Both the position numbers and the translations under genes were made by a program. The notes beneath the pieces are model-generated. The model saw only the letters and a list, made by a program, of their open reading frames with translations, had not been told where the DNA came from and ran no database searches. Positions 34,646 through 60,573 of a stretch of 64,000 nucleotides of DNA are shown here, piece after piece (positions within the stretch are counted from its first letter, which is position 1; each line of letters opens with the position of its first letter). This stretch comes from Candidatus Minusculum obligatum (GTDB taxonomy: Bacteria > Patescibacteriota > Minisyncoccia > Phycocordibacterales > Phycocordibacteraceae): NCBI GenBank assembly GCA_002331145.1, contig DCYT01000002.1, forward strand, positions 23,337 to 87,336, given 5' to 3'.

Positions 34646-37564
34646 ATGAATCTCTTTGAGGAGGCGTACAAAAGGCTTAATAAAGACCAGAAAAGGGCCG
34701 TGGATACGATTGAGGGGCCTGTAATGGTGATTGCAGGGCCTGGAACGGGAAAGACACAGATTCTTACCCTTCGTATTGCAAATATCCTCAAAAACACTGA
34801 TACACCTCCATCTGCTATTCTTGCTCTTACCTATACAGATGCGGGGGTAAATGCGATGCGAGAGCGCCTTGTGCAGTTTATTGGTACCGAAGCGTACCTT
34901 GTGCGTATCCATACATATCACTCATTTGCAGAGAGTTTAATAAAAGAATATGGAGAGCATCTAGAGCGTTTGCGAGATGGAATGCTTGCAGATGATGTGG
35001 ATCAAAGAGAAATACTTGAGAGGGCTTTTGATTCAGTCTCAGCACCACTTCTAACAAGTAGAGGAGATGCATACAGGGGAATAAAAGAAGTTGTAAGGTT
35101 TATCGATACTGCAAAGCGAGAGCTCTACACTCCAGAGAAACTTTTGAAGGAATATAAAGAAGATGAAGAGAGGATACGAAACCTGGAAGATTTTGAACAT
35201 GTAAAAGGTGCGCACAAAGGAAAGGTGAAGGCGGAATACTTAAAGGCACTCGCAAAGATTGAGAAAAATACTCAAGCTACAGAAATTTATAAAGCGTATG
35301 AAGATATTCTTCGAAGAGAAAATCGATATGATTATCAGGATCTTTTGCTTGAGTTAGTCGCAGCTCTAAAAGAGAATCAAGAATTTAAACAAATTCTTCA
35401 AGAGCAATTCTTATATTTCCTTGCAGATGAGCACCAGGATGCAAATGCAACACAGAATGAAATCTTGCTGGAGCTGGCAGACTTTCACGATTCACCAAAT
35501 GTATTTGTGGTGGGAGATGAGAAGCAGGCGATCTATAGATTTCAAGGAGCAGACCTTGATACCTTCCTAACACTCAAGGAGCGATATCAAAATGCAGAAG
35601 TTATTTTGCTTGAGACAAACTATCGATCAACCCAAGAGGTGCTTGATACAGCACATGAGCTTATATCAAAAGCTCCAATTCCAGATGAGAGTCTTCGAAA
35701 GGAACTTGGTGCACATCACGGAAGTGGAGCTAAGGTACGTGTGTGTAAAGCTCACGATGGTGAGGATGAGCTCTCACAAGTTGTTGGATATATAGAAAAG
35801 CTTCTAAAAGAAGGAGTAAGTGAGAAGGATGTTGCGGTACTTGTGCGAAACAATGCAGATGCATCTATTGTTGCTGGTGCATGTATGCGAGCAAAAATCC
35901 CTTTTACTATTATGGCGAAAGAGAATGTGCTAAAGAGTGCGTTTGCAAAACTCTACATTAATTTACTCCGTGCTATTTGGGATGGAGATACTATCGCACT
36001 AACTAAAGCACTCTTTCTCCCAGGGATTGTAAGCGATGGCACAGACAGGTTGAAACTCATCGAAGCTCTTAGGAAAACAAAGAAAAACCTTCTTAAAGAT
36101 ATAGATGAGAGCAAGTTCTCAGAAAAAGAAGAAATAAAGAAATTAAAAGAAGTGTTTGCTGAACTTCATGAAGAAGTGCACGCATTTCCTGCGGCCCGTG
36201 TAGTTCCGCATATTATTTCAAAACTAAACATTGTATCTGGAATAACGAAGAGACTTGATGCCCAAGAACTTTATGGAATTCTTCAGGCACTACTACACGA
36301 TGTAGAGAAATTTGCCGGCGCATATCCCGGATCTGACATAGGAGCATATCTTGAGAGGGTAGATTTAATTGAAAAGCATGAGCTTTCTGTTATCTCAACA
36401 AAGAAAGAGGTACGAGGTATTCAAATAATGACCGCGCATAGTTCAAAAGGTCTTGAGTTTCCATATGTAATTATTCCTTTTGCTACTGATAGAAGGTATG
36501 GAAAGAAGCGGGCGAATGAGCTATCAGTTCCAGGATCATTAATCCAAGAAGAGCACGATGAGCGAAGACTTTTGTATGTGGCACTTACCCGTGCAGAAAA
36601 AGAAGCGCTTATTACCTATGCTGCAAGGAATGCTTTGGGAAGAGAGGAAACTCCAACAAGGTTTATTCATGACATGGGTGAGCTGCTAGAGGATATGGAG
36701 AGTTTTGAAACAACACTGCCATTAGTTGCAGAGGAGGAGCGAACATCACTTATTGATACTTCATACATAAAAGACAGGCTTCTAGAATCTGGAATGTCAG
36801 CAACAGCATACGGAAACTACAAAGCATCTCCATGGAAGTATTTCTTTAGAAATCTTCTAAGGCTTCCAGAGGGGAAGACACTGCCACTTATTTATGGATC
36901 TGCAGTGCATGCTGCGCTGGAGGAAGCGGGAAATCAATCCCTTGCAAAGGGAGAGTTTGATATCAAAGAAGTAGAGAAGCTTTTTGAAGAGAAGATGCAG
37001 TCTTCTGATCTAACTGAAAAAGAAAGAAAAGAATATACGCCAATAGGAAAGAAAGTTCTGAAGGAATATTTAGAACAGACAACGCTTCCAAAAGAAGGGA
37101 AGACAGAGTTTTCAGTTTCAGCACCATTTGAGATTCCAGGAGTTGGGACGCTAACCATTCGAGGAAATCTCGATCGACTAGATATCGTTGATGGATCTTC
37201 TGTACGTGTAGTTGATTACAAGACAGGGAAGCCAAAGAGTGAGAATGAGATTAAAGGATTAACTGCAAATGGTGATCCTTCGTACTACGTGCAGCTTATG
37301 TTCTACGCATTGCTTCTAAAGCACGACCCATCACACTTATACAATATGAAAGAGGGGGTGCTTGAGTTTGTAGAGCCAAATGCAACAAGGAAGTATGTGT
37401 CTCGATCTTTTGTAATTGATGAGAAGGAGCTCTCAGAATTTGAGGAGGTCTTTAAGAAAGACCTTGCTGATATAGCAAGCGGCGCATTTTTGAATGCGCC
37501 GCTTAGCGATGACTACAAAGAGTTAGTCGAAATGATTAGCTTGAAGAAAGAATCTGGTCAATAA
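34646..37564 (+). CDS. UvrD/PcrA-type superfamily 1 helicase with a C-terminal PD-(D/E)xK (RecB/AddA-like) nuclease domain
   Basis: Walker A AGPGTGKTQ, DExQD-like FLADEHQDANATQ, helicase motifs through IMTAHSSKGLEFPYVIIP...VALTRAEK. C-terminal nuclease motifs GNLDRLDIVDGSSVRVVDYKTG...YYVQLMFY. 972 aa. Confidence 0.85.
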   Translation: MNLFEEAYKRLNKDQKRAVDTIEGPVMVIAGPGTGKTQILTLRIANILKNTDTPPSAILALTYTDAGVNAMRERLVQFIGTEAYLVRIHTYHSFAESLIKEYGEHLERLRDGMLADDVDQREILERAFDSVSAPLLTSRGDAYRGIKEVVRFIDTAKRELYTPEKLLKEYKEDEERIRNLEDFEHVKGAHKGKVKAEYLKALAKIEKNTQATEIYKAYEDILRRENRYDYQDLLLELVAALKENQEFKQILQEQFLYFLADEHQDANATQNEILLELADFHDSPNVFVVGDEKQAIYRFQGADLDTFLTLKERYQNAEVILLETNYRSTQEVLDTAHELISKAPIPDESLRKELGAHHGSGAKVRVCKAHDGEDELSQVVGYIEKLLKEGVSEKDVAVLVRNNADASIVAGACMRAKIPFTIMAKENVLKSAFAKLYINLLRAIWDGDTIALTKALFLPGIVSDGTDRLKLIEALRKTKKNLLKDIDESKFSEKEEIKKLKEVFAELHEEVHAFPAARVVPHIISKLNIVSGITKRLDAQELYGILQALLHDVEKFAGAYPGSDIGAYLERVDLIEKHELSVISTKKEVRGIQIMTAHSSKGLEFPYVIIPFATDRRYGKKRANELSVPGSLIQEEHDERRLLYVALTRAEKEALITYAARNALGREETPTRFIHDMGELLEDMESFETTLPLVAEEERTSLIDTSYIKDRLLESGMSATAYGNYKASPWKYFFRNLLRLPEGKTLPLIYGSAVHAALEEAGNQSLAKGEFDIKEVEKLFEEKMQSSDLTEKERKEYTPIGKKVLKEYLEQTTLPKEGKTEFSVSAPFEIPGVGTLTIRGNLDRLDIVDGSSVRVVDYKTGKPKSENEIKGLTANGDPSYYVQLMFYALLLKHDPSHLYNMKEGVLEFVEPNATRKYVSRSFVIDEKELSEFEEVFKKDLADIASGAFLNAPLSDDYKELVEMISLKKESGQ

Positions 37565-38225
37565 CTCCTTTCATTTGCTCATACGGTAGAGCGCTTGAGA
37601 AGCTAACTGGTTCCTCTCCTTCCATAATAACGATGTTAAATGGAGTTCCTGTTCCTCCAGCCTCAACTGCTGTGTTGAATGAGTTCTGTACTTTCTCTGT
37701 GTACTTTCCGCTTGCAACACATGCATCGAGTGCTTCTTTTGATACACCAACCTGTTCTGCGTACTCTCCGTACTTACTTGGATCGGTTTGTTGATTTCCT
37801 GGTGCGTTCTCAAATAGAACATCAAGGAAGCTCCAGAATGAATCATTTCCTCCAAGTTCCGCTACACACTCAGCAGCTTCTGCATGCTTTGCTGCATTTG
37901 GGTGAATAGATGATAGAGGGAAGTGTCGGTATACCCATGCCACGTCTCCTGATGGACCATACTCATCAATGATTTGCTTCATTGTCTCATGGAAGTTCTT
38001 ACAGAACGGACAATCAATATCTGAGTACTCAATAATAGTAATTTTCGCATTAGGACTTCCTAGGATGTGATCATCCTCTGTAATTGGAAGTACAACACTC
38101 ACATCAGCTTCCTGCTGATTATTTGGGTTTTGTGGAGCCTGTTCATTAAAGAATACTGCTCCTGCAATCAGCAGTCCTGCCACTACTATCGCTCCTGGAA
38201 TCGCAAATTTAGCCATATATTTCAA
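37536..38225 (-). CDS. DsbA-like thiol:disulfide oxidoreductase, membrane-anchored (paralog 1)
   Basis: N-terminal TM helix. CPFC active site in IIEYSDIDCPFCKNFHETM, and a VAWVYRHFPL motif shared with the other two paralogs. Overlaps the helicase 3' end by 29 nt (convergent). Confidence 0.85.
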   Translation of the reverse strand: MKYMAKFAIPGAIVVAGLLIAGAVFFNEQAPQNPNNQQEADVSVVLPITEDDHILGSPNAKITIIEYSDIDCPFCKNFHETMKQIIDEYGPSGDVAWVYRHFPLSSIHPNAAKHAEAAECVAELGGNDSFWSFLDVLFENAPGNQQTDPSKYGEYAEQVGVSKEALDACVASGKYTEKVQNSFNTAVEAGGTGTPFNIVIMEGEEPVSFSSALPYEQMKGVIDQILSSS

Positions 38226-38242
38226 TCTTATCGTGCTATTAT

Positions 38243-39067
38243 ATGGGCCAGTATACCATGGAAGTTTTTACAGCCATCATCCTTGGTCTTATCCAAGGAA
38301 TCACAGAATTTCTCCCAATTTCGTCAACCGGACACCTTGTTTTGGTGCAAGAATTCTTAGGAGTATCTGATATTTACGGGCTTTCTTTTGATGCAATCTT
38401 ACACCTTGCTACTGCCTTGGCTGTTGGAATCTACTTTTTTAAAGATTTTCTAAAGATTGCCTATGCATTTCTTTATAGAATTACAGGTCGTCCAGTTGTA
38501 AAAGAGGATGAGACAATGCTCTTGCTTCTCATTATCGGAACTATTCCAGCTGCAGCATTGGGATTTTATTTAGAAGATTACATGGATACCATCTTCCGGA
38601 ATCCTGTTTTGGTTGCCTGGACACTTATCTTGGGAGCCCTTATCTTCCTTTTGGCTGAGTGGGTGGGGAAGCGATATCAGGAGCAAGAAGAAGTTCCTAC
38701 AAAAATGAAAGCACTTTGGATTGGATTCTTCCAAGCGCTCGCCCTTATTCCAGGAATGAGTCGCTCTGGTATGACAATCTCAGGAGGATTGATGCTTGGT
38801 CTTACAAGAGAGGCTGCAGCACGCTTTGGATTTATGTTGGCTTTTCCAATTATCCTTGGATCTGGAGGAAAGAAGTTTCTCGATCTTCTAAATGCTGGAA
38901 CTTTTGATGCAAATATTGCTCCAATATTCTGGGGAGCAGTTGCAGCGTTTGTAAGTGGGCTTTTGGTTATTCATTACCTTCTAAAATTCCTGCGAAATCA
39001 TTCGCTTACTGTATTTGCGGTGTATAGAATACTATTGGCAATAGTTGTGCTTGTTTGGTTTGTCTAA
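38243..39067 (+). CDS. uppP: Undecaprenyl-diphosphate phosphatase
   Basis: ITEFLPISSTGHLVL and PGMSRSGMTISGGLMLGL signatures. 8 TM helices. Confidence 0.9.
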   Translation: MGQYTMEVFTAIILGLIQGITEFLPISSTGHLVLVQEFLGVSDIYGLSFDAILHLATALAVGIYFFKDFLKIAYAFLYRITGRPVVKEDETMLLLLIIGTIPAAALGFYLEDYMDTIFRNPVLVAWTLILGALIFLLAEWVGKRYQEQEEVPTKMKALWIGFFQALALIPGMSRSGMTISGGLMLGLTREAAARFGFMLAFPIILGSGGKKFLDLLNAGTFDANIAPIFWGAVAAFVSGLLVIHYLLKFLRNHSLTVFAVYRILLAIVVLVWFV

Positions 39068-39101: not shown

Positions 39102-39102
39102 G

Positions 39103-43556: not shown

Positions 43557-43594
43557 AAAACGCATGCGCTTGATATACTTAGCGCATGCGTTTT
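43557..43594. terminator. Inverted repeat with 14-bp arms (aaaacgcatgcgct-tgatatactt-agcgcatgcgtttt). A terminator-like element. The annotated start of the next ORF lies inside the right arm.
   Basis: Perfect 14-bp arms with a 10-nt loop, flanked by an A-run and a T-run. Confidence 0.45.
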
Positions 43595-44044
43595 CATTTT
43601 TGGTATACAGTTTTTTCACTCTTCTTCTTTGTAGAGGCAGTTTTAGCGGTAATGCACTTAGGGTCACTGGGACTTATTCCTACGTGGATTCCTGTTTTTG
43701 ATTTTATTCTTCTTACACTTGCCACATTCAGGCTAACTCGACTGTTTGTATATGACAGTATTACAGCTTTCGTTCGGGGATGGTTCTACGGACAGCCTAA
43801 AAATAGTTTCCTAGGAACACTTAATACTCTTATTAACTGCCCATGGTGCACCGGTCTTTGGTTTGGTTTCCTTACCGCGTACTTCTATTTCCTAACACCA
43901 TACGCTTGGTTCTTCATTCTATTCCTTGCGGTTGCAGGACTCGGGACTATGGTTCAGATCTTCTGTAACTTGCTTGGTTGGAGCGCAGAAGCTGCAAAAC
44001 AGAAGGCAAGCAATGGGAATGGGCCACACGTTTGTGGAGGTTAA
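43586..44044 (+). CDS. DUF1360-like membrane protein with a CPWC motif. The true start may be the internal Met at 43652.
   Basis: ITAFVRGWFYG...LINCPWCTGLWFGF. Multiple TM helices. Confidence 0.5.
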   Translation: MRFHFWYTVFSLFFFVEAVLAVMHLGSLGLIPTWIPVFDFILLTLATFRLTRLFVYDSITAFVRGWFYGQPKNSFLGTLNTLINCPWCTGLWFGFLTAYFYFLTPYAWFFILFLAVAGLGTMVQIFCNLLGWSAEAAKQKASNGNGPHVCGG

Positions 44045-44046: not shown

Positions 44047-44078
44047 AAAAACAGTGGACAATATTGTCCACTGTTTTT
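44047..44078. terminator. Perfect 32-bp palindromic terminator (aaaaacagtggacaat|attgtccactgttttt)
   Basis: 16-bp arms with A5/T5 flanks built in. Follows the DUF1360 stop. Confidence 0.7.
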
Positions 44079-44097: not shown

Positions 44098-44382
44098 ATG
44101 TTCATATCTTCAAACATCGAACAGTCAGCAGAGCTTCTAAAACTTTTAGGAGACACTACTCGATTGAAAATCCTTAATCTTCTTTTCTCTGAAGATCGAG
44201 ATATGTGTGTAAATGAAATTGCCTACGAAGTAGGAGCAAGTCAGTCAGCAACAAGTCATCAGCTTTCCAAATTAGAGGCACTTAATATAGTGTCTTGTTT
44301 TCGTGATGGTCAAAAGGTTTGTTATGAATTAACTGACAAGCCAATTGTCGATTCTATTAGAAATATTTTGAAAGTTGTATGA
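44098..44382 (+). CDS. ArsR/SmtB-family transcriptional regulator
   Basis: ELLKLLGDTTRLKILNLLFSEDRDMCVNEIAYEVGASQSATSHQLSKL is an HTH. 94 aa. Heads a 5-gene operon linked by 4-nt overlaps. Confidence 0.85.
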   Translation: MFISSNIEQSAELLKLLGDTTRLKILNLLFSEDRDMCVNEIAYEVGASQSATSHQLSKLEALNIVSCFRDGQKVCYELTDKPIVDSIRNILKVV

Positions 44383-45375: not shown

Positions 45376-46017
45376 ATGAATCAAGGAACAACAATAGCAG
45401 GAGCACTTATTGCAGGAGCAGTAATCTTTAGTAATGGAAATACACAAGTAGCAGGTGGAGGTAACGAGAATCAAAACCAAGAAGTAAATATCGCTGAAAT
45501 AACAGAGAGAGATCATCTTTTTGGAAATCCAAATGCGCCAATAAAGATTGTGGAGTATTCAGATTTTGAATGTCCTTTCTGTTCACGATTCCATCCAACT
45601 GTAGAGCAGGTAGTACAAGAGTTTGATGGAGAGGTTGCGTGGGTATATAGGCACTTCCCATTAAACATTCATGCAAATGCAGAACCTGCTGCAGAGGCAA
45701 GTGAGTGTGTAGCAGAGCTTGGAGGGAACGATGCTTTCTGGAGTTTTTCAGAAGAGCTGTTTAATAATCAGAGAGGTCTTGGAGAGTCTCTATATCTACA
45801 ACTTGCAGCAGCTGAAGGTGTGAGTGAGTCAGCAATGCAAAGTTGTCTTGATAGTGATCGACACCTAGCAAAGGTGCGAAGTGACATGCAGGACGCTATC
45901 AATGCAGGAGGTCGAGGAACACCATTCTCTGTTGTTATTGGAGAGAATGGAGATATGGTTCCATTCTCAGGAGCGCTTCCGTATGAGAGCGTAGTGAGCG
46001 TTATCAATTCTCTATGA
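45376..46017 (+). CDS. DsbA-like thiol:disulfide oxidoreductase (paralog 2)
   Basis: IVEYSDFECPFCSRFHPTV and VAWVYRHFPL. N-terminal TM helix. The ORF track start at 45292 overlaps the upstream gene; the ATG at 45376 is preferred. Confidence 0.85.
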   Translation: MNQGTTIAGALIAGAVIFSNGNTQVAGGGNENQNQEVNIAEITERDHLFGNPNAPIKIVEYSDFECPFCSRFHPTVEQVVQEFDGEVAWVYRHFPLNIHANAEPAAEASECVAELGGNDAFWSFSEELFNNQRGLGESLYLQLAAAEGVSESAMQSCLDSDRHLAKVRSDMQDAINAGGRGTPFSVVIGENGDMVPFSGALPYESVVSVINSL

Positions 46018-48029: not shown

Positions 48030-48036
48030 ATCAAAT

Positions 48037-48066
48037 AAAAAACACCCCCTTGCGGGGGTGTTTTTT
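48037..48066. terminator. Bidirectional intrinsic terminator between the 3D-domain gene and convergent cspA
   Basis: aaaaaacaccccc-ttgc-gggggtgtttttt: a perfect 13-bp stem with A6/T6 flanks. Confidence 0.8.
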
Positions 48067-48069
48067 GAT

Positions 48070-51388: not shown

Positions 51389-53044
51389 ATGCCATCCATG
51401 ACTCAAAGAGAAGCTCTCGATATCCTAAAGGCTGGCCGAAATGTATACCTTACTGGTCCTGCTGGAAGTGGAAAAACATACGTATTAAATCAATACACAA
51501 AATACCTAAAAGAGCGGGGAGTTGTAACTGCAATTACCGCATCTACTGGTATAGCAGCAACACATATAGGAGGCATGACGATACATTCATGGAGTGGTAT
51601 TGGCATCAAAGATACGCTCTCAGATTCTGACATCGATCTTCTTGTACAAAAGGAACATCTTTTTAAGCGGTACGAAAAAACAAAGGTTCTTATCATTGAT
51701 GAAGTTTCCATGATGCATCCTGAGATGTTTGATGCACTTGATCGACTGGCCAGAGCAATGAAAATGAATGAGAAGCCTTTTGGAGGAATGCAAATTGTAT
51801 TATCTGGTGACTTCTTTCAGCTTCCACCAATAACAAAAGGAGGAGGGAGTATCTATGTAGATAGTTCAAAGGCTTGGAAAAGTATGGATATTCGAGTGTG
51901 TTATCTAGAAGAACAGCACAGACAGCAAGGAGGATCACTGGAAAATATCTTGTCTGAAATACGTGATGGAGAAATTTCATACAGTACACAAGAGATATTC
52001 GAAGAACTTCTCGAGAATAAACAAAGATTAAATGGAGAGCCAACTCGCTTGTATACACACAATGCAGATGTAGACGCTATTAATGAAGCAGAGCTTGAGA
52101 AGCTCGAGGGAGAGCTCTTTTCATACGAAATGGATTCAAGAGGGAAGGCAAATCTTGTAACAAGTCTTTCAAAGAGTATTTTGGCACCTCAATACCTAAA
52201 TATTAAAAAGGACGCAATTGTGATGTTTGTAAAAAACTCTTTTGAAGAAGGGTATGTAAATGGAACTCTTGGAAGAGTTGTTGATTTTGAAGAGGGTAGT
52301 CCTGTTGTAGAAACATACGAGGGAAAGAAAATAACAGTATCTCCTGCAACATGGGAGATTCAAGATGATGGAAAAGTATTAGCTGCGGTAGATCAACTGC
52401 CTATTCGTCTTGCTTGGGCCATAACGGTACACAAAAGCCAGGGAATGAGCCTTGATGCAGTGGAGATGGATCTTTCAAAATCTTTTGTGCCAGGACAAGG
52501 ATATGTAGCACTTTCAAGACTTCGTGATATTGAAGGGCTCACGCTCCTTGGGCTTAATCGCATGGCACTTACTGTGGATCCGTATGTAATTGAACTAAAC
52601 AAATGGCTTTTAGATGAATCTGCAAAATGGTCCAAAAGAATTGCGAAGTTTAGTAAAGAAGAGTTTGTAAAAATGCATGAGGAGTTTGTAGATAGGTGTG
52701 GCGGAACAAATGATGAGAGGGAGATAGAAAAGAACAAGGCAGCAAAAGAATATGAGGGTATGCAGGAGGTAATTCCATCTCACCACAAAACTCTTGTATT
52801 GCTTGAAGAGAAGATGAGTCTCAAAGATATGGCAAAAGAGCGGAAAGTAACAAAAGCAACAATCATTTCTCATCTAGAGAAGTTAAAGAGTGAAGGTGTT
52901 GGAGACTATGAGTATCTAAAACCCAAAGGTCTTGCAGCAATGAAAAAGGTAATAAAAGAAGAGGAGAAATTATCTTCTGCGCACAAGAAGCTGAGAGGGA
53001 AATATACGTACGAAGATTTGAGACTTGCGAGGTTATTTGCCTAG
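51389..53044 (+). CDS. Pif1/RecD-like superfamily 1B DNA helicase
   Basis: Walker A TGPAGSGKTY, LIIDEVSMM, GGMQIVLSGDFFQLPPI, C-terminal AITVHKSQGMSLDAVEMDL and a C-terminal HTH-like tail. 551 aa. Confidence 0.8.
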   Translation: MPSMTQREALDILKAGRNVYLTGPAGSGKTYVLNQYTKYLKERGVVTAITASTGIAATHIGGMTIHSWSGIGIKDTLSDSDIDLLVQKEHLFKRYEKTKVLIIDEVSMMHPEMFDALDRLARAMKMNEKPFGGMQIVLSGDFFQLPPITKGGGSIYVDSSKAWKSMDIRVCYLEEQHRQQGGSLENILSEIRDGEISYSTQEIFEELLENKQRLNGEPTRLYTHNADVDAINEAELEKLEGELFSYEMDSRGKANLVTSLSKSILAPQYLNIKKDAIVMFVKNSFEEGYVNGTLGRVVDFEEGSPVVETYEGKKITVSPATWEIQDDGKVLAAVDQLPIRLAWAITVHKSQGMSLDAVEMDLSKSFVPGQGYVALSRLRDIEGLTLLGLNRMALTVDPYVIELNKWLLDESAKWSKRIAKFSKEEFVKMHEEFVDRCGGTNDEREIEKNKAAKEYEGMQEVIPSHHKTLVLLEEKMSLKDMAKERKVTKATIISHLEKLKSEGVGDYEYLKPKGLAAMKKVIKEEEKLSSAHKKLRGKYTYEDLRLARLFA

Positions 53045-53090: not shown

Positions 53091-53094
53091 TGCT

Positions 53095-53465
53095 CCGTAT
53101 ATATGATGAAATCCGAATGTATTTCAGACGGAGTCTGAAATGAACGGCGAGAGCCGGTGGTGGCCCGTACATACACCTCCGCGAGGTGATCTCCACATAC
53201 TTTCCGCACCGACACGACAAGCTAACGCTCGCCGTGCACAAATAGAATCCTTCTTTGCACTTTTATCCTTTCCTGCGCCCCCATTTTTTGGGAAAGAAGA
53301 AAAGAAGTTTCTATTTGCCTTCTGCTCCGCAGAAGGGGTGCTTGTACCTCCAGGTATGTGTTTACTTCCCCTAGAGAAGCAAAAGGCACTTTCCAGAGCC
53401 TCTAGCGAGGCTTCCAAACGCTTCAATTACACCAATTGAAGCGTTTGAGGGGAAAGTGTGTAGAT
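53095..53465. ncRNA. Candidate structured non-coding RNA of about 370 nt. GC-rich and hairpin-dense. Strand and identity unresolved; RNase P RNA or another housekeeping RNA is possible.
   Basis: Locally GC-rich (about 55-60%) within an AT-rich genome. Lies between convergent genes. Contains at least 6 perfect 6-14-bp stems (for example tttcagac-ggag-tctgaaa, ccttctgc-tcc-gcagaagg, caaacgcttcaatt-acacc-aattgaagcgtttg, cacctc-cgc-gaggtg). The ORFs on both strands (53124..53426 -, 53140..53439 +) are low-complexity and non-protein-like. On the minus strand, GGAGCAGAAGGCAAAUAG and GGUGCGGAAAG resemble RNase P blocks, but their order is non-canonical. Confidence 0.3.
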
Positions 53466-53469
53466 ATTT

Positions 53470-53856
53470 CTAAGCAAGAGCATCAATGCTTTGTTTAAGT
53501 TGTTTTTCTACATCTTGAGCAACACCTTTAAGTATATCTGATTCAACCATACTCATTGCGGCAGAAGGAAGGATAGAAGAAACATATGTATTCTTGTTTT
53601 GTTCATACACAATCACATTACAAGGAAGAAGGAGTCCTATTTCTTTTTCTGCTGAAAGTGCTTTGTGCGCAAATGTAGGATTACATGCGCCAAGAATTGT
53701 GTAGCGATCATAATCAGCGCCAATTTTTTCTTTCATGGTTTTTTGTACATCAATAGTTGTAAGTACTCCAAAACCATTATCAGCGAGTGACTTTTTTACA
53801 GCACCAATTGCCTCATCAAAAGAAAGGGACGTCTTTACGGTGTGACTGTATTTCAT
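53470..53856 (-). CDS. DUF302-domain protein
   Basis: ILGACNPTFAHKALSAEKEIGLLLPCNVIVYE block. 128 aa. Confidence 0.65.
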   Translation of the reverse strand: MKYSHTVKTSLSFDEAIGAVKKSLADNGFGVLTTIDVQKTMKEKIGADYDRYTILGACNPTFAHKALSAEKEIGLLLPCNVIVYEQNKNTYVSSILPSAAMSMVESDILKGVAQDVEKQLKQSIDALA

Positions 53857-54092
53857 GCAAGTTTATTATATGTCACTGCAAACAGATAGAAGGCAATAAA
53901 TGACATAATTGCAGCTTCAATCATCCCTGTTAGTGTTCCAACAATAGTGGGGGAATAGAAGAGGTGCATTTCTTGCATTGCTGAAACTGCAATCGTATAA
54001 ATTCCCAGAGAGTTAAAGATAGTTAGAAGGAGCATGATAAGAGCAGAAACAATTCCTGCTGCATACCCAAGTGCTTTTGCATGTAATTTCAT
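53853..54092 (-). CDS. Small hypothetical membrane protein (79 aa), translationally coupled to the DUF302 gene
   Basis: Two TM helices. ATGA overlap. Confidence 0.45.
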   Translation of the reverse strand: MKLHAKALGYAAGIVSALIMLLLTIFNSLGIYTIAVSAMQEMHLFYSPTIVGTLTGMIEAAIMSFIAFYLFAVTYNKLA

Positions 54093-54170
54093 ATCAGAAA
54101 AGATTTACTTTAATAAAATAGGGGATAAAGAATTGACGTATAATACCCCCTAGGGGTATTATACCTTCTA

Positions 54171-54443
54171 ATGAAGAAAGATATCAAGAAGAGAGTTGTG
54201 CACAGGTTGAAAATCATCGAGGGGCAAGTGAAAGGTTTGCAAAGAATGGCAGAAGAAGAAGAGTATTGTATTAGCATCATTACTCAAGTTTCAGCAATGA
54301 GGCAAGCACTTTCTTCTGTAGAAGACTTAATGCTTGAAAATCACTTACTTACACATGTGGTGAGTCAAATGAAGAGCAAGAAAGGTCAAACGAAAGCAGT
54401 GGAGGAAATGTTGTCCATTTATAAACTTTCAAAGAAAAAGTAG
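54171..54443 (+). CDS. CsoR/RcnR/FrmR-family (DUF156) metal- or persulfide-sensing transcriptional repressor
   Basis: RLKIIEGQVKGLQRMAEEEEYCISIITQVSAMRQAL...LENHLLTHV: Cys in the YC motif, and an H-x-x-x-H where CsoR has H-x-x-x-C. Confidence 0.75.
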   Translation: MKKDIKKRVVHRLKIIEGQVKGLQRMAEEEEYCISIITQVSAMRQALSSVEDLMLENHLLTHVVSQMKSKKGQTKAVEEMLSIYKLSKKK

Positions 54444-54447
54444 ATAT

Positions 54448-55275
54448 ATGAATGCAAAAATACTTGGAATTGGAGCTTTTGTCGCACTACTCATTGCTGG
54501 CTTTGTGTTGGTGCAAGGTGGTGTTCCAGAATCTAAAATGGTTGAAGAGCACAGTGATTCTCTAGAATCATACGAAATGAGTCCTTCACAAGCTGTTAGC
54601 CGAATGCAAAGCAAAGATGATGTTGTGGTTCTTGATGTTCGAACAATTCAAGAATATGAAGAAATTCACCTTCAAAATGCTCTCTTGCTCCCCGTGCAGG
54701 AACTTTCTCAAGCTTCACTTGATGCGATTGGTCTTTCTGACAAAGATCAGGAAATAATTCTCTATTGCAGGAGTGGTGCTCGGAGTAAGACGGCTTTCGA
54801 TATCATGAATTCTCTTGGGTATACAAATATAAAAAGCGTTGCAGGAGGGATGATTCATTGGCAAGAAGATAATTACCCACTTACAGAGGTAGGAAAATTC
54901 AATGAATCAAAGAATATTCAGGAAAGTGACGAAAACACAATGGGTCCAAAGATAAGTGTCGATCGTAAGCTACATGATTTTGGAGAGATTCCTCAATTTG
55001 CAGGTGTAGTACAGACTATGTTTACTGTTACAAATTTGGGGACAGAAACTCTTACTGTTGGCGATATTACAACTAGTTGTAGCTGTACATCAGCAACACT
55101 GTCTTCATATTCTATTGGGGTGGGAGAGAGCGCTGAACTTACCGTTCTCTTTGACCCTGATTTACACGAAGAGCCAGAGGGTGTGTTTACACGAACGGTA
55201 TTTATCCCAAGTAATGACGTGAATACTCCAGAGGCAGAAGTTGCAGTACAAGTCGATATATTAGAAGGAGTTTAA
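54448..55275 (+). CDS. Membrane-anchored rhodanese (sulfurtransferase) domain fused to a DUF1573 Ig-like domain
   Basis: Rhodanese active-site loop ILYCRSGARSKTA. C-terminal DUF1573-like FGEIPQFAGVVQTMFTVTNLGTETLTVGDITTSCSCT. Confidence 0.7.
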   Translation: MNAKILGIGAFVALLIAGFVLVQGGVPESKMVEEHSDSLESYEMSPSQAVSRMQSKDDVVVLDVRTIQEYEEIHLQNALLLPVQELSQASLDAIGLSDKDQEIILYCRSGARSKTAFDIMNSLGYTNIKSVAGGMIHWQEDNYPLTEVGKFNESKNIQESDENTMGPKISVDRKLHDFGEIPQFAGVVQTMFTVTNLGTETLTVGDITTSCSCTSATLSSYSIGVGESAELTVLFDPDLHEEPEGVFTRTVFIPSNDVNTPEAEVAVQVDILEGV

Positions 55276-55286
55276 AATTAGATAAT

Positions 55287-55757
55287 ATGAATAATTACAT
55301 CGTAGGAGCACTAGTTATTGCAGGAGCACTTATTGCAGGAGCAATATTCTTTGTGGGTGGAGGTCCTGTTACAGAAAAGGTTGTGGCATCGGAGATTACT
55401 CTTGAGGCAAACGAGTATGATTTTGGTGACATTGATATTTTTGGTGGAAAGGTAAAAGCAACTTTCCCACTTACAAATACTGGAAGTGCTGATGTGACAG
55501 TGCTGTCTGGAGTTACAAGTTGTATCTGTACAGAAGGAGAAATAGATTCACTTTCCTTTGGCATGCATGGAAGTGATGGCGAGACAGTAATACCGGCAGG
55601 AGAGACAAGGGAGTTGGTTGCAATATATGATCCATTAGCACATGGTCCTGATGGAGTTGGGAAAATAAAGCGACAGTTGCAACTAAAGACAAACTCTTCG
55701 GTAACTGAGTACATCGACGTAAGTTTTACAGGAAATGTAGTAAAGAATGCTGAGTAA
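55287..55757 (+). CDS. DUF1573 Ig-like domain protein with a signal anchor
   Basis: YDFGDIDIFGGKVKATFPLTNTGSADVTVLSGVTSCICT: a paralogous fold to the C-terminus of the upstream protein. Confidence 0.6.
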   Translation: MNNYIVGALVIAGALIAGAIFFVGGGPVTEKVVASEITLEANEYDFGDIDIFGGKVKATFPLTNTGSADVTVLSGVTSCICTEGEIDSLSFGMHGSDGETVIPAGETRELVAIYDPLAHGPDGVGKIKRQLQLKTNSSVTEYIDVSFTGNVVKNAE

Positions 55758-55771
55758 TAAATAATATTCTC

Positions 55772-56725
55772 ATGGATAAAGTAAAAATAGCACTCGTAGG
55801 TATCGCATTCATTCTCTTGTCAATCATGCTTGTTGGAGGATTTAGTCTACTGACTTCTCCTACTATGGTTCCAGGATTTTCTCTGGCATTTTTGGCAGGG
55901 ATATCAATGATTGTGCTTCCGTGTACTTTTCCTCTTGTGTTTATCATTGTTCCTCTTGCGCTCTCAAAACAAAACGTGAAGAAAGGCATCATTATGGCAC
56001 TTCTTTTTGGTCTTGGTCTTACCGTTACATTTACGCTGTATGGTCTAGCACTCGGATGGCTGGGTGGTTTCGTTGGATTGTACAAAGTTGTCAGTGCAAT
56101 GCTTCTTATTGGAGGTATAGCAGCCCTCTTCTTTGGATTGGCAGAACTTGGTTTAGTGAACTTCTCTTTGCCATTTCGAAAAACTATTCTTCCACAGTCG
56201 CTCCAGCAAAAGAATGACTACATACGGAGCTTCTTTCTAGGCTTCTTCTTGGGAAACGCCGGAGTTGGTTGTCCAAATCCAGCCTTCTACATATTGTTTG
56301 GGTACGTTGCCACACTTGGAGATCCTATTACTGGGGCGTCTCTTGGAGCATTACATGGAATAGGAAGAATGGTTCCTCTTCTATTTCTAGTAGTTCTTGC
56401 AATTCTTGGAATAAATATGATGGAAAAGGTGAGTGCATATCAGGAAAGGGTAAAGCGTTGGGTTGCATGGTCGCTTGTTGTGCTTGGAGCATTCATACTT
56501 AACTATGGACTCTTTGGCATGGCATGGTTTGAAAAATCAGGTATTCATGAAGCATGGAATCAGTTCCTTCTTGCGGTAGTTCCAAAAATTGCAGAGTCAG
56601 CAGAGCTTGAGTCAGCTCTGCAGCTTCCGCAGGGTGTTGGTGGTATTATGCCCTGGATAGTTCTTGGTGCGGTTATAAGTGGGGTAATTGTATGGAGTGC
56701 GGTTAAGGCACGAAATAGTAAATAA
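55772..56725 (+). CDS. DsbD_2/CcdA-like thiol-disulfide transmembrane electron transporter (second copy in the window)
   Basis: Cys in TM1 (IVLPCTFPLV) and Cys in a later TM (GVGCPNPAFYIL). About 8 TM helices. Confidence 0.65.
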   Translation: MDKVKIALVGIAFILLSIMLVGGFSLLTSPTMVPGFSLAFLAGISMIVLPCTFPLVFIIVPLALSKQNVKKGIIMALLFGLGLTVTFTLYGLALGWLGGFVGLYKVVSAMLLIGGIAALFFGLAELGLVNFSLPFRKTILPQSLQQKNDYIRSFFLGFFLGNAGVGCPNPAFYILFGYVATLGDPITGASLGALHGIGRMVPLLFLVVLAILGINMMEKVSAYQERVKRWVAWSLVVLGAFILNYGLFGMAWFEKSGIHEAWNQFLLAVVPKIAESAELESALQLPQGVGGIMPWIVLGAVISGVIVWSAVKARNSK

Positions 56726-56727
56726 TT

Positions 56728-56880
56728 ATGACTAACTTTATACAAATAGCATATGCACATGGAGGAGAGGAAGTTGAAGCTGTAACAGCTCTTGATTTCT
56801 CAGGGCCACTTATTGCTCTGGGAATGATTGTTGCAGCAATTATTATTGCAAAAATTATTTCTAAGAAAAAAATAACATGA
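56728..56880 (+). CDS. Small membrane peptide (50 aa) whose stop overlaps the start of the Grx-like gene
   Basis: MTNFIQIAYAHGGEEVEAVTALDFSGPLIALGMIVAAIIIAKIISKKKIT. Not in the ORF track (under 60 aa). TGA/ATG overlap at 56877. Confidence 0.35.
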   Translation: MTNFIQIAYAHGGEEVEAVTALDFSGPLIALGMIVAAIIIAKIISKKKIT

Positions 56881-57134
56881 TTAAAGTAACACTTGTCCGC
56901 CCAGAAGGATGTCATCATTGTAAGGAGGTTAAAAACACACTTGAGGGAATGAGAGATGAATTTCCTGATATTTCAATTGAAGAAATTGATATGGTTACAC
57001 CTGAAGGAAGGGAGCTTGTTCAAAAATATCAGATGCTATCAAGCCCAGGGATTTTAATTAATGATGAATTCTTTGCTTTTGGCGGCGCTACTGAGGAACA
57101 GTTTAGAAAAAAGTTTAACGAAATTAATGGCTAG
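56877..57134 (+). CDS. Glutaredoxin/NrdH-like small thioredoxin-fold protein (CxxC = CHHC)
   Basis: VTLVRPEGCHHCKEVKNTLEGM. 85 aa. Confidence 0.6.
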   Translation: MIKVTLVRPEGCHHCKEVKNTLEGMRDEFPDISIEEIDMVTPEGRELVQKYQMLSSPGILINDEFFAFGGATEEQFRKKFNEING

Positions 57135-57155
57135 GCCTGGTAAAGAATAAAGAAA

Positions 57156-57869
57156 ATGTTGTTGGGAATTAAAAGTAAAAAAGTTGCACTCTTGCGCCAC
57201 TTAGCAATGGCTATTGTTGGGGGATTGCTTGTGTATTTGGTTTGGTCACTTAATGGTACGTGGAGTCCAGATATGCGGTTGTGGAAAGCATTTGGTGGAG
57301 CATCTTTTTTCCTCCTATGGTTTGCTGTTGTTATTGGGCCGTTAGCAAAGCTTCTTCCATCATTTAACTTAATGCTCTCGTATCGTCGCGAGGCAGGAGT
57401 TTGGTTTTTTATCATTGCATTGGTGCACGGATATCTCATTCTTGATGGCTGGGTGCGGTGGAATGTATGGGAATTTTTCGGCTATCAATACTTTACTGAA
57501 GTAGAGATGTATTTAAGAGTTGAGCCTGGGTTTGGATTAGCAAGTTTACTTGGACTTGTTGCTCTCATGTTTGCTCTTGCGCTTGCTGCAACATCTTTTG
57601 ATTGGGCAGTTAATCTTCTAGGTATTACTTCTTGGAAATGGTTGCATATGTTTGCGTACGTTGTGTTTTATTTGGCAGCAATGCATGTTGTATATTTTGC
57701 CTTTATTCATTACACACCTTCGTTTAATAGGCTTGCTATGGGGCTTCCAACAGATTATCCAGATAACCCATTGAAATATTATTATCTCAACGCACTTCTG
57801 AGTGTGTTTGTTTTGCAGACATCTGCTTTTATTGCAACGGTACGTAAAAATAAAAGAGCAAGCTGGTAG
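57156..57869 (+). CDS. Ferric-reductase-type (FRD/MsrQ-like) di-haem transmembrane protein
   Basis: His pair spaced 13 apart on one helix (LHMFAYVVFYLAAMH). His in an earlier helix (IIALVHGYLIL). Six TM helices. Confidence 0.65.
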   Translation: MLLGIKSKKVALLRHLAMAIVGGLLVYLVWSLNGTWSPDMRLWKAFGGASFFLLWFAVVIGPLAKLLPSFNLMLSYRREAGVWFFIIALVHGYLILDGWVRWNVWEFFGYQYFTEVEMYLRVEPGFGLASLLGLVALMFALALAATSFDWAVNLLGITSWKWLHMFAYVVFYLAAMHVVYFAFIHYTPSFNRLAMGLPTDYPDNPLKYYYLNALLSVFVLQTSAFIATVRKNKRASW

Positions 57870-57872
57870 CGT

Positions 57873-58553
57873 ATGGTATTTGAAACAATAATTAAAGGAC
57901 GTAAAAAAGTTGCAAAAGGTACTTGTGAAATAACTTTCAAAAGACCCGAGAAATTTGTATTTAAAGCAGGGCAATATATACAAATTGCCATACCAGAATT
58001 ACTTAGTCCGGATTTAAGGGGTAATTCACGGCTATTTTCTGTCACTTCGTCTCCGGACGATTTAGAAAATATCCGCGTAGTTTTTAGAGTCTCTACTAGT
58101 GGATTCAAACAAACATTGGTGAGTATGCCAGTTGGTGCAACAGTGCAAATTGAACAGGCTGCTGGCAGTTTTGTTTTACCGCAATCACCAAAACAGCAAC
58201 AAATTTTTGTTGCTGGCGGTGTTGGCATCTCTCCATTTATGAGCTACTTCAATCAAGAGAATACTCCATTTGAGAAAGGGCAGACTACTCTTTTTTATGG
58301 AAATCAAAACGAAGAGAGTGCCGCATATGTTACTGAGCTCCGCGCTTTTGCAAAGAGGTATCAATCTTTTTCACTTCAAGAGCTGTATGAAAGACCTTCC
58401 TCTGAATTCTTTAGGAGAAATGCGCAAATGTATAAAGATGCTACGTGGTGGGTGGTTGGGCCACCGGCAATGGTTGGAGTTGTTGTAAACGGACTTCAAT
58501 TAGGGGGTGTGGACCAAAATAATATTATAACTGAACCCTTTGAAGGATATTAG
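57873..58553 (+). CDS. FNR-fold FAD/NAD(P)H oxidoreductase (Fre-like flavin reductase), encoded separately from the FRD membrane domain
   Basis: RLFSVTSSP (RxYS FAD motif), IFVAGGVGISP (GGxGxxP NAD(P)H motif) and a C-terminal WWVVGPPAMV. Confidence 0.7.
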   Translation: MVFETIIKGRKKVAKGTCEITFKRPEKFVFKAGQYIQIAIPELLSPDLRGNSRLFSVTSSPDDLENIRVVFRVSTSGFKQTLVSMPVGATVQIEQAAGSFVLPQSPKQQQIFVAGGVGISPFMSYFNQENTPFEKGQTTLFYGNQNEESAAYVTELRAFAKRYQSFSLQELYERPSSEFFRRNAQMYKDATWWVVGPPAMVGVVVNGLQLGGVDQNNIITEPFEGY

Positions 58554-58557
58554 ACAT

Positions 58558-59328
58558 ATGAAAAATACTTTAGGATTAATTGTTTTTATTCTCGTACTTG
58601 TTGCACTAACTGCAATATTTTTTCTGAATGGTAGAAATACAGAAGTAACAATCGATGAAATATTTTCTGTATCTGCTCAGGATATTAAAGATCAAATTAC
58701 CATTGATCGTGTTGTTATGGACCAGCCAGGATTTATTGTGGCACGAGAAATTATAGATGGAAAACCGGGGCAGATAGTGGAAGTAAGTAAGTATTTAAAG
58801 GCGGGCGAAAATGTTGATGTTGTTATAGGTCTTGCACAACCATTAATTGAGGGGGTTGGTGTGAGCAGCGATCAATTTGATCAAGAAATTGTTGTTGCTG
58901 TGTATTATGATGATGGAGATAAGGGCTTTAATCCGTCTCTTGATTCTCTTGCATATCGTGAAGGGGAAGTGCTCGCACGGTTTGTCAAAACAGGAGTAAT
59001 GGCGCCTGAGTCAGCAGTGGTGCCAAACACTAAGGGTGAAAATATTGATGTTGCTCAAATAGTTACCTATACAGACAGTGGGTTTATTCCTCGGAACAGT
59101 GAAATTTCTTCTGGTGATACTGTTCGATTTATTAATAAGAGCAGTAATCAAATGTGGGTTGCCTCAAATGGGCATCCGGCACATATGATACTTCCAACAT
59201 TTGATCAGTTTAGTGCTTCTTCATATGGTGAAAGTTATGAATACACTTTTGAAAAAGAGGGGGTGTGGGAGTATCACGATCACATAAATGCTAGCCAGGT
59301 TGGTGTCATGTTAGTTCATTCAAATTAA
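58558..59328 (+). CDS. Membrane-anchored protein with a C-terminal cupredoxin-like domain that lacks the canonical type-1 copper cysteine (HDH in place of C..H)
   Basis: GDTVRFINKSSNQMWVASNGHPAHM...YEYTFEKEGVWEYHDHINASQVGVMLV follows the cupredoxin pattern (N.S....H....YEY.C..H..M.G...V) with Cys replaced by Asp. Confidence 0.55.
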   Translation: MKNTLGLIVFILVLVALTAIFFLNGRNTEVTIDEIFSVSAQDIKDQITIDRVVMDQPGFIVAREIIDGKPGQIVEVSKYLKAGENVDVVIGLAQPLIEGVGVSSDQFDQEIVVAVYYDDGDKGFNPSLDSLAYREGEVLARFVKTGVMAPESAVVPNTKGENIDVAQIVTYTDSGFIPRNSEISSGDTVRFINKSSNQMWVASNGHPAHMILPTFDQFSASSYGESYEYTFEKEGVWEYHDHINASQVGVMLVHSN

Positions 59329-59333
59329 ATTAC

Positions 59334-59804
59334 ATGCAAAATACAATAAATATTTGGGGAGTGTCTGCCATTATTGGCATAACGGTTTTGTTACTTGGTG
59401 GCGTTGCATTGTTGCCAAAAGCTCCTACAGGAGAGGGAGATGCTGTTGCTGCGGGACTCCATTGGCATCCTGAATTGCAAATTTTTGTTGATGAAGAAAA
59501 GCAGCAAATTCCAGCAAACATAAGGCTTGGTGGTGGCGGACATCAGCCAATACATACACACACAGAAGATGTTGAGGAAGGAGTACTTCACTTTGAGTTT
59601 GGAGGAGTTGCCTATACTGGAGATCTTCGTTTAGGAAACTTCTTCCGTATTTGGGGAAATAAAGATATGCAAACAGCGTTTGGCGTACTTGAACGAATGA
59701 TAGTAAATGGAGAAGAAAACAGTGAATTTGGAGAATATATTGTACAAAGTGAAGACAAAATAGAGCTCCACTACAACACTTTATTGCAGGGAGAGGTTAT
59801 GTAG
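59334..59804 (+). CDS. His-rich hypothetical exported protein (HWHP...HQPIHTHTED), a candidate metal binder
   Basis: Signal anchor, then LHWHPELQIFVD...GGGGHQPIHTHTEDVEEGVLHFEF. Confidence 0.5.
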   Translation: MQNTINIWGVSAIIGITVLLLGGVALLPKAPTGEGDAVAAGLHWHPELQIFVDEEKQQIPANIRLGGGGHQPIHTHTEDVEEGVLHFEFGGVAYTGDLRLGNFFRIWGNKDMQTAFGVLERMIVNGEENSEFGEYIVQSEDKIELHYNTLLQGEVM

Positions 59805-59847
59805 GCATGTTATTATTACTTAAATAAAAAAATAAAATATTGTTACT

Positions 59848-60573
59848 ATGGAAGAAAAAAAGAAAGAAGGGATGAATTTGGCAGTTCCGGGTGCGATTAT
59901 GTTTGCTGGAATACTCATTGCTGGCGCATTAGTGTTCTCCTCACTGCAAAGCAGTGGGGGACAGCAAGTAGCTGAAGAGGCTCCACAAGACGCAGGGTCT
60001 CTTGACGCAATGGATCCAGTGTCAGAAAAAGATCACGTTCGAGGGAATCCAAATGCTCCAGTTATGATTGTTGAGTATTCAGACTATGAATGTCCTTTCT
60101 GTAAGCGCTTCCATGAGACCATGAACCAGGTTATGGATACATATGGTGCTGAAGGAAAAGTTGCGTGGGTATATCGGCACTTTCCTCTTGACCAACTCCA
60201 TCCAGTAAAAGCTCGGCAAGAAGCTGCCGCAGCAGAATGTGTTGCTGAAATTGGCGGAGATGACATGTTTTGGAGGTTCTCAGATAGATTCTTTGAGCTT
60301 ACGCCATCTAACAATCAAACCGACCTCACCGTGGTTCTTCCACAAATTTATTCTGAACTAGGTCTTTCGCAAGCAAAGGTGAATGAGTGTGTTGCAAGTG
60401 GGAGGTATGATGATCATATTCAAGCTGAGTTTGAAAATGCTGTGGCAACAGGAGGTCGTGGTACGCCGTGGAGCATTCTTATAGCTGCAGACGGTACAAA
60501 GTACCCACTGTCTGGCGCACAACCTCTTAGTGCTATAAATCAGCTTATTGAACTTGGATTAGGAAACAACTAG
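59848..60573 (+). CDS. DsbA-like thiol:disulfide oxidoreductase (paralog 3)
   Basis: IVEYSDYECPFCKRFHETM and VAWVYRHFPL. N-terminal TM helix. About 50% identical by eye to paralogs 1 and 2. Confidence 0.85.
   Translation: MEEKKKEGMNLAVPGAIMFAGILIAGALVFSSLQSSGGQQVAEEAPQDAGSLDAMDPVSEKDHVRGNPNAPVMIVEYSDYECPFCKRFHETMNQVMDTYGAEGKVAWVYRHFPLDQLHPVKARQEAAAAECVAEIGGDDMFWRFSDRFFELTPSNNQTDLTVVLPQIYSELGLSQAKVNECVASGRYDDHIQAEFENAVATGGRGTPWSILIAADGTKYPLSGAQPLSAINQLIELGLGNN

Follow-up and report, generated by a model that had tools for sequence, protein, structure and literature searches.

Four DsbA-family genes with separate gene neighbourhoods, one of them on a laterally transferred redox island, in a 64-kb stretch of a Patescibacteria genome

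We analysed a stretch of 64,000 nucleotides (nt) of the genome of Candidatus Minusculum obligatum, a member of the Patescibacteriota (contig DCYT01000002.1, positions 23,337 to 87,336), which is referred to below as the window. By sequence, the window encodes four real members of the DsbA family of thiol-disulfide oxidoreductases, all membrane-anchored and predicted to be extracytoplasmic. We refer to these as paralogs A to D.

37536–38216, minus strand: DsbA paralog A; 226 amino acids (aa), active site CPFC, Thr before the cis-Pro, N-terminal membrane anchor, second Cys pair C117/C166
45376–46017, plus strand: DsbA paralog B; 213 aa, active site CPFC, Cys at 66, 69, 111 and 157
59848–60573, plus strand: DsbA paralog C; 241 aa, active site CPFC, second Cys pair C131/C181
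61632–62372, plus strand: DsbA paralog D; 246 aa, active site CEAC, two Cys only, Thr before the cis-Pro

A sequence-only reading of the window had described three related DsbA copies, roughly half identical and sharing long motif blocks, and a divergent CEAC copy directly before dsbB. This description holds. The translations of all four open reading frames (ORFs) agree, with the start of A moved to the ATG at 38216, in agreement with an identical database protein (P0001, 100% coverage); the TTG at 38225 is less likely. Every one of the blocks EYSD.(D/E)CPFC..FH.T, VAWVYRHFPL, ECVAE.GG(N/D)D.FW.F and GG(R/T)GTP(F/W) is present. Pairwise amino acid identity is 49.5% for A/B, 45.9% for A/C and 43.5% for B/C, and D, which is indeed followed by a gene with a Pfam DsbB match, is 26–27% identical to the other three. 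In Pfam profile searches, all four paralogs matched both Thioredoxin_4 (PF13462; 81–92 bits, gathering cut-off 23.2) and DSBA (PF01323; 52–58 bits, gathering cut-off 25.6). The G-T-P of the cis-Pro loop is invariant in the four-way alignment, the cis conformation being predicted from sequence. Hydropathy profiles place an N-terminal hydrophobic anchor in A and C, consistent with the predicted extracytoplasmic location. The single hydrophobic segment of D (residues 22–41) reaches the 1.6 transmembrane (TM) threshold and stays below the stricter 2.0 N-terminal flag, and the short anchor of B reaches neither. It should also be noted that the B anchor (window 45376–45440) is without six residues (IVIAGA) that its orthologs have, leaving about 13 hydrophobic residues; the deletion falls between short IAGA repeats.

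Paralogs A, B and C are assigned by sequence to the four-cysteine class of alpha-DsbA and PaDsbA2, with the second Cys pair predicted to lie in the helical domain. Four Cys are conserved across the A/B/C alignment, and CPFC together with exactly four Cys is found in 338 of the 360 database relatives listed. The top solved-structure match is PaDsbA2 (4n30) for A (E 1e-16) and for B (E 7e-15), and Wolbachia alpha-DsbA1 (3f4r) together with 4n30 for C; across these matches (E 1e-16 to 6e-12) the catalytic and the second Cys pairs both align. ScsC-type chains matched A at E 2e-5 and B at E 2e-8 to 9e-7, in each case more weakly than 4n30, and did not match C at E ≤ 1e-5. According to Arts et al. 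(PMC3870256), PaDsbA2 defines a class in which four Cys are conserved and Thr always precedes the cis-Pro; the enzyme is very oxidising (−67.5 mV), which depends on the second disulfide, and DsbB re-oxidises it. The Patescibacteria proteins resemble PaDsbA2 and Wolbachia alpha-DsbA1 in the CPFC-type site, in the Thr before the cis-Pro and in a second Cys pair that aligns with PaDsbA2 C111/C157. They differ in that identity is just ~25–35%, in that they are membrane-anchored in a monoderm-type envelope, and in that B and C share operons with CcdA-type transporters rather than with DsbB.

The sequence-only reading had taken the shared blocks as a sign of recent duplication, and this part did not survive. 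In codon alignments, third positions are 37–41% identical among A, B and C and 31–36% identical between these and D, showing that synonymous sites are saturated; DNA similarity between copies is ~70% over stretches of 260–320 nt, the longest being 324 nt. Orthologs in other genomes are far closer, reaching 83% for A, 82% for B and 97% for C, compared to at most 50% for the three copies among themselves. The series of A orthologs runs from 83, 79 and 78% down to 61%, that of B from 82, 71 and 70% down to 58%, and C has more than 120 orthologs at 57–97% in the database. For 354 of the 360 relatives listed, the nearest query was the one that had retrieved them, and in neighbor-joining (NJ) trees A, B and C fall into separate groups. 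Furthermore, the complete UBA2103 genome has orthologs of A (78%), B (58%) and C (99.2%) in matching contexts. The TULL18 scaffold has an A ortholog (P0005, 78%), a C ortholog (P0246, 78%) and a truncated DsbA followed by Redoxin and DsbD_TM genes, and UBA3533, the GTDB representative, has the A locus at 99% identity. These sequence comparisons indicate that A, B and C are old paralogs, each belonging to a lineage that is spread across Paceibacteria with its own neighbourhood. A recent duplication of A, B and C is excluded by the saturated third positions and the far closer orthologs elsewhere.

Each of the four copies is tied to a different module, as had been proposed, and the attachment is kept across many genomes. 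The neighbours had been named correctly: uppP and the helicase-nuclease gene by A, the arsR–DUF3179–B–tlpA–ccdA operon, and a redox cluster around C. To survey these neighbourhoods we used 80 loci from GTDB genomes, 80 metagenome loci and 13 targeted loci, in which homologs of window proteins were located by tblastn; loci are cited below by L numbers.

Paralog A is a monocistronic copy between the following two genes.

38243–39067, plus strand: uppP/BacA, divergent neighbour of A (Pfam BacA, E 1e-81), with zero Cys
34646–37564, plus strand: UvrD-type helicase fused to a PD-(D/E)XK nuclease (Pfam), convergent with A, the 3' ends overlapping by 29 nt

Among CPFC DsbAs that are not C-type, UppP lies divergently upstream in 32 of 79 loci and the UvrD-nuclease gene convergently downstream in 29 of 73, and this A-type arrangement is found across many Paceibacteria groups.

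Paralog B is the third gene of an operon whose genes overlap or abut; B itself abuts the DUF3179 gene and overlaps tlpA.

44098–44382, plus strand: ArsR/SmtB-family regulator (Pfam HTH_5), first gene of the B operon
44379–45374, plus strand: DUF3179 protein (Pfam, E 2e-82), membrane-anchored, CPLC (C136/C139)
46014–46517, plus strand: TlpA/ResA-like redoxin (Pfam AhpC-TSA and Redoxin), membrane-anchored, WCPFC; its start overlaps the B stop
46514–47284, plus strand: CcdA-type thiol-disulfide transporter (Pfam DsbD_TM, E 3e-22), 256 aa, membrane Cys C24 and C153

Terminator-like hairpins at 44047–44078 and 47350–47365 bound the operon. All five genes recur together in L085, L086, L168, L169 and L170, where the surroundings are unrelated and DsbA identity falls as low as ~50%, and partial versions are present in L002, L003, L100, L102 and L140; an ArsR regulator heads the operon in L085, L086, L100, L168, L169 and L170. 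DUF3179 is known as a UxxC selenoprotein and DUF1573, which is encoded near C, as a UGC selenoprotein (PMC9312934), an occurrence that marks the Cys motifs of both as redox-active. A DUF1360 membrane protein with CPWC is encoded just upstream of the B operon (43586–44044), with a terminator-like hairpin between; in UBA2103 the DUF1360 gene directly precedes the B ortholog.

Paralog C lies in an island of redox and metal-type genes.

53092–53461, no strand: structured non-coding segment of 370 nt, the sharp left edge of the transferred island
53470–54092, minus strand: DUF302 gene and small two-helix (DUF5676-like) gene (Pfam), part of the island and divergent from the CsoR-like gene
54171–54443, plus strand: CsoR/RcnR-family repressor (Pfam Trns_repr_metal, E 7e-24), C33-H58-H62, first gene of the island operon
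54448–55757, plus strand: membrane-anchored rhodanese-DUF1573 fusion (CSC) and DUF1573 protein (CIC) (Pfam)
55772–56725, plus strand: second DsbD_TM/CcdA-like transporter (DsbD_TM2; Pfam), 317 aa, C51/C167
~56728–56880, plus strand: unannotated small membrane ORF of 50 aa with a C-terminal membrane helix, between DsbD_TM2 and the thioredoxin gene
56877–57134, plus strand: Thioredoxin_3 protein (Pfam), small, cytoplasmic, C-x-H-C motif (CHHC)
57156–59804, plus strand: ferric-reductase-type membrane protein, FAD/NAD(P)-binding partner, DUF7282 protein and His-rich unk156 (Pfam)
60578–61099, plus strand: unk173, uncharacterised protein of 173 aa with about four membrane helices, 4-nt gap after C
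61109–61570, plus strand: PAP2-family membrane phosphatase (Pfam PAP2), last gene of the 95%-identical block

A promoter-like site (54133–54162) precedes the CsoR-like gene, from which 14 co-directional genes with small gaps reach DsbB. The two transporters of the window, CcdA in the B operon and DsbD_TM2 here, match DsbD_TM at 79.5 and 39.2 bits (cut-off 27.1), have conserved membrane Cys in P-C/C-P contexts (C24/C153 and C51/C167), and were aligned to each other as CcdA versus DsbD_TM2 family by hhalign with a probability of 97%. The trio of DsbD_TM2, small membrane ORF and thioredoxin is also called in L003 (the TULL18 scaffold) and L171 (UBA2103), where the ORF at the position equivalent to 56728–56880 has 46–48 aa. 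Homologs of the Thioredoxin_3 protein carry CGHC, CQHC or CAHC, a PDI-like C-x-H-C motif.

Paralog C and unk173 form a tight gene pair. With C-type DsbAs defined as those at least 53% identical to C, an unk173 homolog follows on the same strand in 43 of the 49 loci with enough flank, compared to 4 of 73 for other CPFC DsbAs. Recurring near the pair in relatives are a CsoR repressor, the rhodanese-DUF1573 and DUF1573 genes, DsbD_TM with the C-x-H-C thioredoxin, a ferric-reductase/FNR pair, DUF7282 or cupredoxin, the HWHP protein, DUF302, P-type ATPases, a multicopper oxidase, DUF305 and DUF3105. The genes from the ferric reductase to unk156 recur beside C-type DsbAs in L032, L099, L123 and L137. 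The DUF302 and DUF5676-like genes lie beside CsoR and a P-type ATPase in UBA2163, and in this genome, a Kaiserbacteria genome and others the metal genes near C relatives include CsoR, P-type ATPase, cupredoxins, multicopper oxidase and DUF305. Judged by these components, the C island points to a metal or thiol-stress role. The membrane-anchored unk156 (59334–59804) belongs to no family, has a conserved G(L/I)HWHP, recurs beside C–unk173 in many loci and is possibly metal-binding.

The window from 53464 to 61560 aligns with UBA2103 (L171, 2895–10983) at 95.1% nucleotide identity over 8,097 bp, whereas the core regions on its flanks are 69–72.5% identical between these genomes. Likewise, island proteins are 91–99% identical to those of UBA2103 (C 99.2%), compared to 58–79% for core proteins (A 78%, B 58%). 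Given 95% identity against ~71% for the core, the island, from CsoR to PAP2, was laterally transferred, and the nucleotide comparison indicates a recent move between two Patescibacteria species. Homology to UBA2103 ends at 61560. At the other side, the 370-nt segment is 94% identical to L171 32–400, where no gene is called in UBA2103, and its folding z-scores are −5.7 and −6.0. An inverted partial copy lies at L171 11094–11319, the far end of the island, beside a large serine recombinase; in the window, D and DsbB take the place of this inverted repeat and recombinase end, and a search of 51–64 kb found no second copy of the segment. An Rfam search of the segment and island edge gave no match and an ARAGORN search of the window found no tRNA or tmRNA, so integration of the island into a tRNA, tmRNA or other known RNA gene was rejected. 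A PIF1-type helicase with a C-terminal HTH_40 domain (51389–53044) adjoins the C island, as it does in the TULL18 scaffold (L003, 10012–11667), and might belong to the mobile element.

Paralog D, with two Cys only, is outside the four-cysteine class and is followed directly by dsbB.

62384–62959, plus strand: DsbB, CELC (C73/C76) and second pair C137/C146, directly after D

The DsbB protein scores 39 bits against Pfam DsbB (cut-off 22.1) and has both external-loop Cys pairs. Its top NCBIfam match is PRK03113 (E 2e-17; 63.6 bits, below the 124-bit cut-off of that model), which is named just 'disulfide oxidoreductase' and which we take to be a BdbC-type model. The top solved-structure matches of D are 4pwp and 7unn (E ~1e-16), deposited as 'DsbA' and 'thioredoxin domain-containing protein', and BdbD (3eu3). 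D and DsbB are also adjacent in L013, L062, L132 and L164. By these matches D is a two-cysteine, MdbA/BdbD-like copy paired with DsbB. The structure matches and the following DsbB gene recall the Gram-positive arrangement of MdbA or BdbD with a BdbC-type DsbB or VKOR, from which D differs in its CEAC active site and in that there is no VKOR in the window.

Taken together, we favor, with a probability of about 0.6, a picture of four real DsbAs, in ancient lineages with modules of their own, with a functional split suggested by gene context and a C island acquired by transfer. On this picture, D and DsbB would generate disulfides de novo. DsbB probably re-oxidises paralog A, the constitutive copy, as well, and A and D together would fold Cys-rich secreted proteins, pilins and sortase substrates among them. 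The position of B and C beside regulators, reductant transporters and redox-motif proteins is more in keeping with regulated modules for thiol relays or metal stress than with general pilin folding; the two would work in regulator-controlled modules tied to metal or thiol stress, in which CcdA-type transporters may carry reducing power across the membrane. The DsbA of such a module could be a reduced isomerase or metal-binding partner, like ScsC with ScsB, or else the oxidising half of an oxidise/re-reduce pair, like BdbD with ResA-CcdA. The proposal in the sequence-only reading of substrate-specialised oxidative folding remains plausible for A and D, given that the window encodes a sortase, surface proteins rich in Cys and a pilin-like protein, but fits poorly with B and C, which are in regulator-headed operons with CcdA/DsbD-type reductant transporters and redox-motif proteins.

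Two known systems offer a comparison for B and C. The B operon matches the parts list of the copper sensitivity suppressor Scs (ScsA, a membrane protein; ScsB, DsbD-like; ScsC, DsbA-like; ScsD, TlpA-like), and so does the C island, which encodes DsbD_TM and DsbA-like proteins, a membrane protein with CxxC and a regulator of metal type, with copper genes present in relatives. As in Scs, a DsbA-like gene accompanies a DsbD-family reductase: B is two genes from CcdA, and the C island has DsbD_TM2 and Thioredoxin_3. However, the regulators are of ArsR and CsoR type rather than CpxR as in Scs, and unk173 is at most a possible counterpart of ScsA. In Bacillus, BdbD and ResA-CcdA form an oxidise then re-reduce pair acting on one specific CXXC substrate. 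The B operon would likewise combine a putative oxidase with a TlpA/ResA-like reductase fed by CcdA, with DUF3179 (CPLC) as the candidate substrate, but here there is no cytochrome c maturation context and the genes are in a single operon under an ArsR-type regulator.

Several observations weigh against this picture. In the NJ bootstrap, the C lineage is moderately supported (67.5%), but the split of A-type from B-type only poorly (4% and 20%); a clean three-clade phylogeny was rejected, as A-type and B-type are not separated, and the claim of ancient paralogy therefore rests on ortholog identities and synteny, not on tree topology. The functional partition of A to D is drawn from gene context only. 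Sequence by itself would fit plain oxidases for A, B and C: PaDsbA2, the nearest relative that has been characterised, is very strongly oxidising and relies on DsbB for its re-oxidation. The linkage of A to uppP and the UvrD gene may be pure synteny. With respect to Scs, both CcdA (256 aa) and DsbD_TM2 (317 aa) match the TM domain only and are without the periplasmic partner-binding domains of ScsB/DsbD, and the ScsC similarity is weak, below that to PaDsbA2. Furthermore, the fingerprint of the CsoR-like repressor in the window is C-H-H and not the canonical copper-type C-H-C found in several homologs from related islands, so its effector may differ.

A second explanation, possible but held only tentatively, is that C and unk173 are a new and self-contained pair, the CAAC protein being either a DsbB/VKOR-like re-oxidiser of C or a Mer-like carrier, which would accept a thiophilic metal(loid) from the CXXC of C and convey it across the membrane to a Cys on the cytoplasmic side. 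Their adjacency (43 of 49 loci, with a gap of 4 nt in the window) and the metal-island context are consistent with this, as are the features of unk173 itself. Searches of Pfam and NCBIfam gave no match to this protein, which is annotated 'hypothetical protein'; yet its family is large, with at least 1,086 cluster representatives at 50% identity (E ≤ 1e-3). Within the family, GxGC(A)(A)CG in helix 3 (C115/C118), P140 and E145 are invariant, and at least 90% of sequences retain the C-terminal C171, predicted to be in a cytoplasmic tail; the positive-inside rule puts the N-terminus inside. There is also a recurrent fusion of unk173 to a cytoplasmic S-adenosylmethionine (SAM) methyltransferase, directly after DsbA and behind an ArsR regulator. 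In one such locus (L172, 5001–6146) the methyltransferase is C-terminal to unk173 and the upstream genes are those for ArsR, DUF302/glutaredoxin, a YgaP-like membrane protein and DsbA; this fusion protein is carried on 12 contigs.

Other observations count against such a pair. An alignment-based AlphaFold 2 (AF2) model (predicted local distance difference test (pLDDT) 85, predicted template modelling (pTM) score 0.75; the single-sequence model, pLDDT 57, was unusable) matched generic helical bundles among solved structures and no informative relative, and profile comparison with DsbB, CcdA and DsbD_TM2 was negative. The protein has neither homology nor a fold match to DsbB, VKOR or CcdA, and it has a single outward CxxC, without the two extracytoplasmic Cys pairs of DsbB and VKOR. 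For the pair as a unit, there are zero DsbA–unk173 fusions among the best 150 representatives and at least one unk173 homolog is without a DsbA neighbour. A more specific version, which we consider speculative and rather doubtful, is that a C-type DsbA and unk173 form an undescribed two-part envelope relay, from CPFC to the intramembrane CxxC to the cytoplasmic Cys, carrying electrons or a thiophilic metal(loid). In some lineages its last acceptor may be the fused methyltransferase, and the relay may travel between Patescibacteria on a recombinase-associated island bounded by the 370-nt structured repeat. If true, and if it carries electrons, such a relay would offer a quinone-independent answer to DsbA recycling in these organisms.

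It is unlikely that all four proteins are redundant oxidases served by the single DsbB, with neighbourhoods that are frozen synteny in streamlined genomes and reflect no functional coupling. The context of A, with a Cys-free uppP and a DNA helicase, does look functionally unrelated, and the nearest characterised relatives are DsbB-dependent oxidases. However, B overlaps tlpA and abuts DUF3179 in a terminator-bounded operon that recurs at ~50% protein identity in different surroundings, and the C–unk173 pair persists while other neighbours shuffle and co-travels on the transferred island.

Very improbable is the proposal that A, B and C are recent tandem-region duplicates, all of them oxidases specialised on different secreted proteins, for example pilins and Ig-repeat proteins with paired Cys. 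It draws on the long common motif blocks and ~45–50% identity, on the oxidising character of the PaDsbA2 class, and on possible substrates in the window, namely a sortase, two proteins that contain 6 and 19 Cys, and a pilin-like protein that contains 4. In addition, an MdbA-like thiol-disulfide oxidoreductase family is enriched in bacteria of the Candidate Phyla Radiation (CPR), for which a role in pilin folding has been proposed and adjacency to VKOR noted (Méheust et al., PMC6744442). The 'recent' part is already refuted by saturated synonymous sites and by the much closer orthologs of each paralog in other genomes, and UBA2103 and the TULL18 scaffold have the same three lineages in the same contexts. 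Moreover, no paralog adjoins pilin or sortase genes, and B and C are embedded among reductant transporters and regulators.

An assembly artefact of collapsed or chimeric repeats, the misassembly against which the sequence-only reading had cautioned, can be dismissed as next to impossible: nothing in its favour was found beyond one Tara assembly that breaks contigs near C/unk173, hinting at strain variation, and it is ruled out by copies just ~70% identical in DNA over at most 324 nt, by unique flanks, and by gene orders repeated in independent assemblies, including UBA3533 and the complete UBA2103 genome.

As Méheust et al. report both the CPR enrichment and the pilin proposal, neither the multiplicity of DsbA nor the pilin idea is new, and calling the copy number unusual, as the sequence-only reading did, was overstated: relatives carry the same three lineages, and enrichment of the oxidoreductase family in CPR is published (PMC6744442). 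In the searchable literature on Patescibacteria DsbA, copper or CsoR, we found no description of lineage-specific DsbA modules, the DsbA–unk173 pair or the mobility of the island. While DsbA-like proteins of CPR bacteria have so far been treated as one pilin-folding family, this locus has at least four lineages, apparently distinct in function, three of which are ancient. Two modules, each under a metal-type repressor, combine a DsbA-like protein with CcdA-type import of reductant, and one pairs a DsbA-like protein with a large unannotated family of CAAC membrane proteins. These are testable candidates for the handling of envelope thiol redox and metal stress in organisms of minimal metabolism without an obvious respiratory quinone pool. 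The comparison with UBA2103 also documents a clear and recent lateral transfer between two Patescibacteria species.

Candidate DsbA substrates are encoded elsewhere in the window: after a sortase gene come two genes whose products look secreted, contain 6 and 19 Cys and match no Pfam family (4480–9143), and further on, at 14537–15007, is a gene for a type IV pilin-like protein that contains 4 Cys. The remaining genes of the window are housekeeping genes, which fits a small streamlined genome. Downstream of the B operon, a perfect sigma-70 consensus (TTGACA, 18 nt, TATAAT; 47394–47423) lies upstream of the gene for a secreted protein of 186 aa (47469–48029), which is followed by a strong bidirectional terminator (48036–48067).

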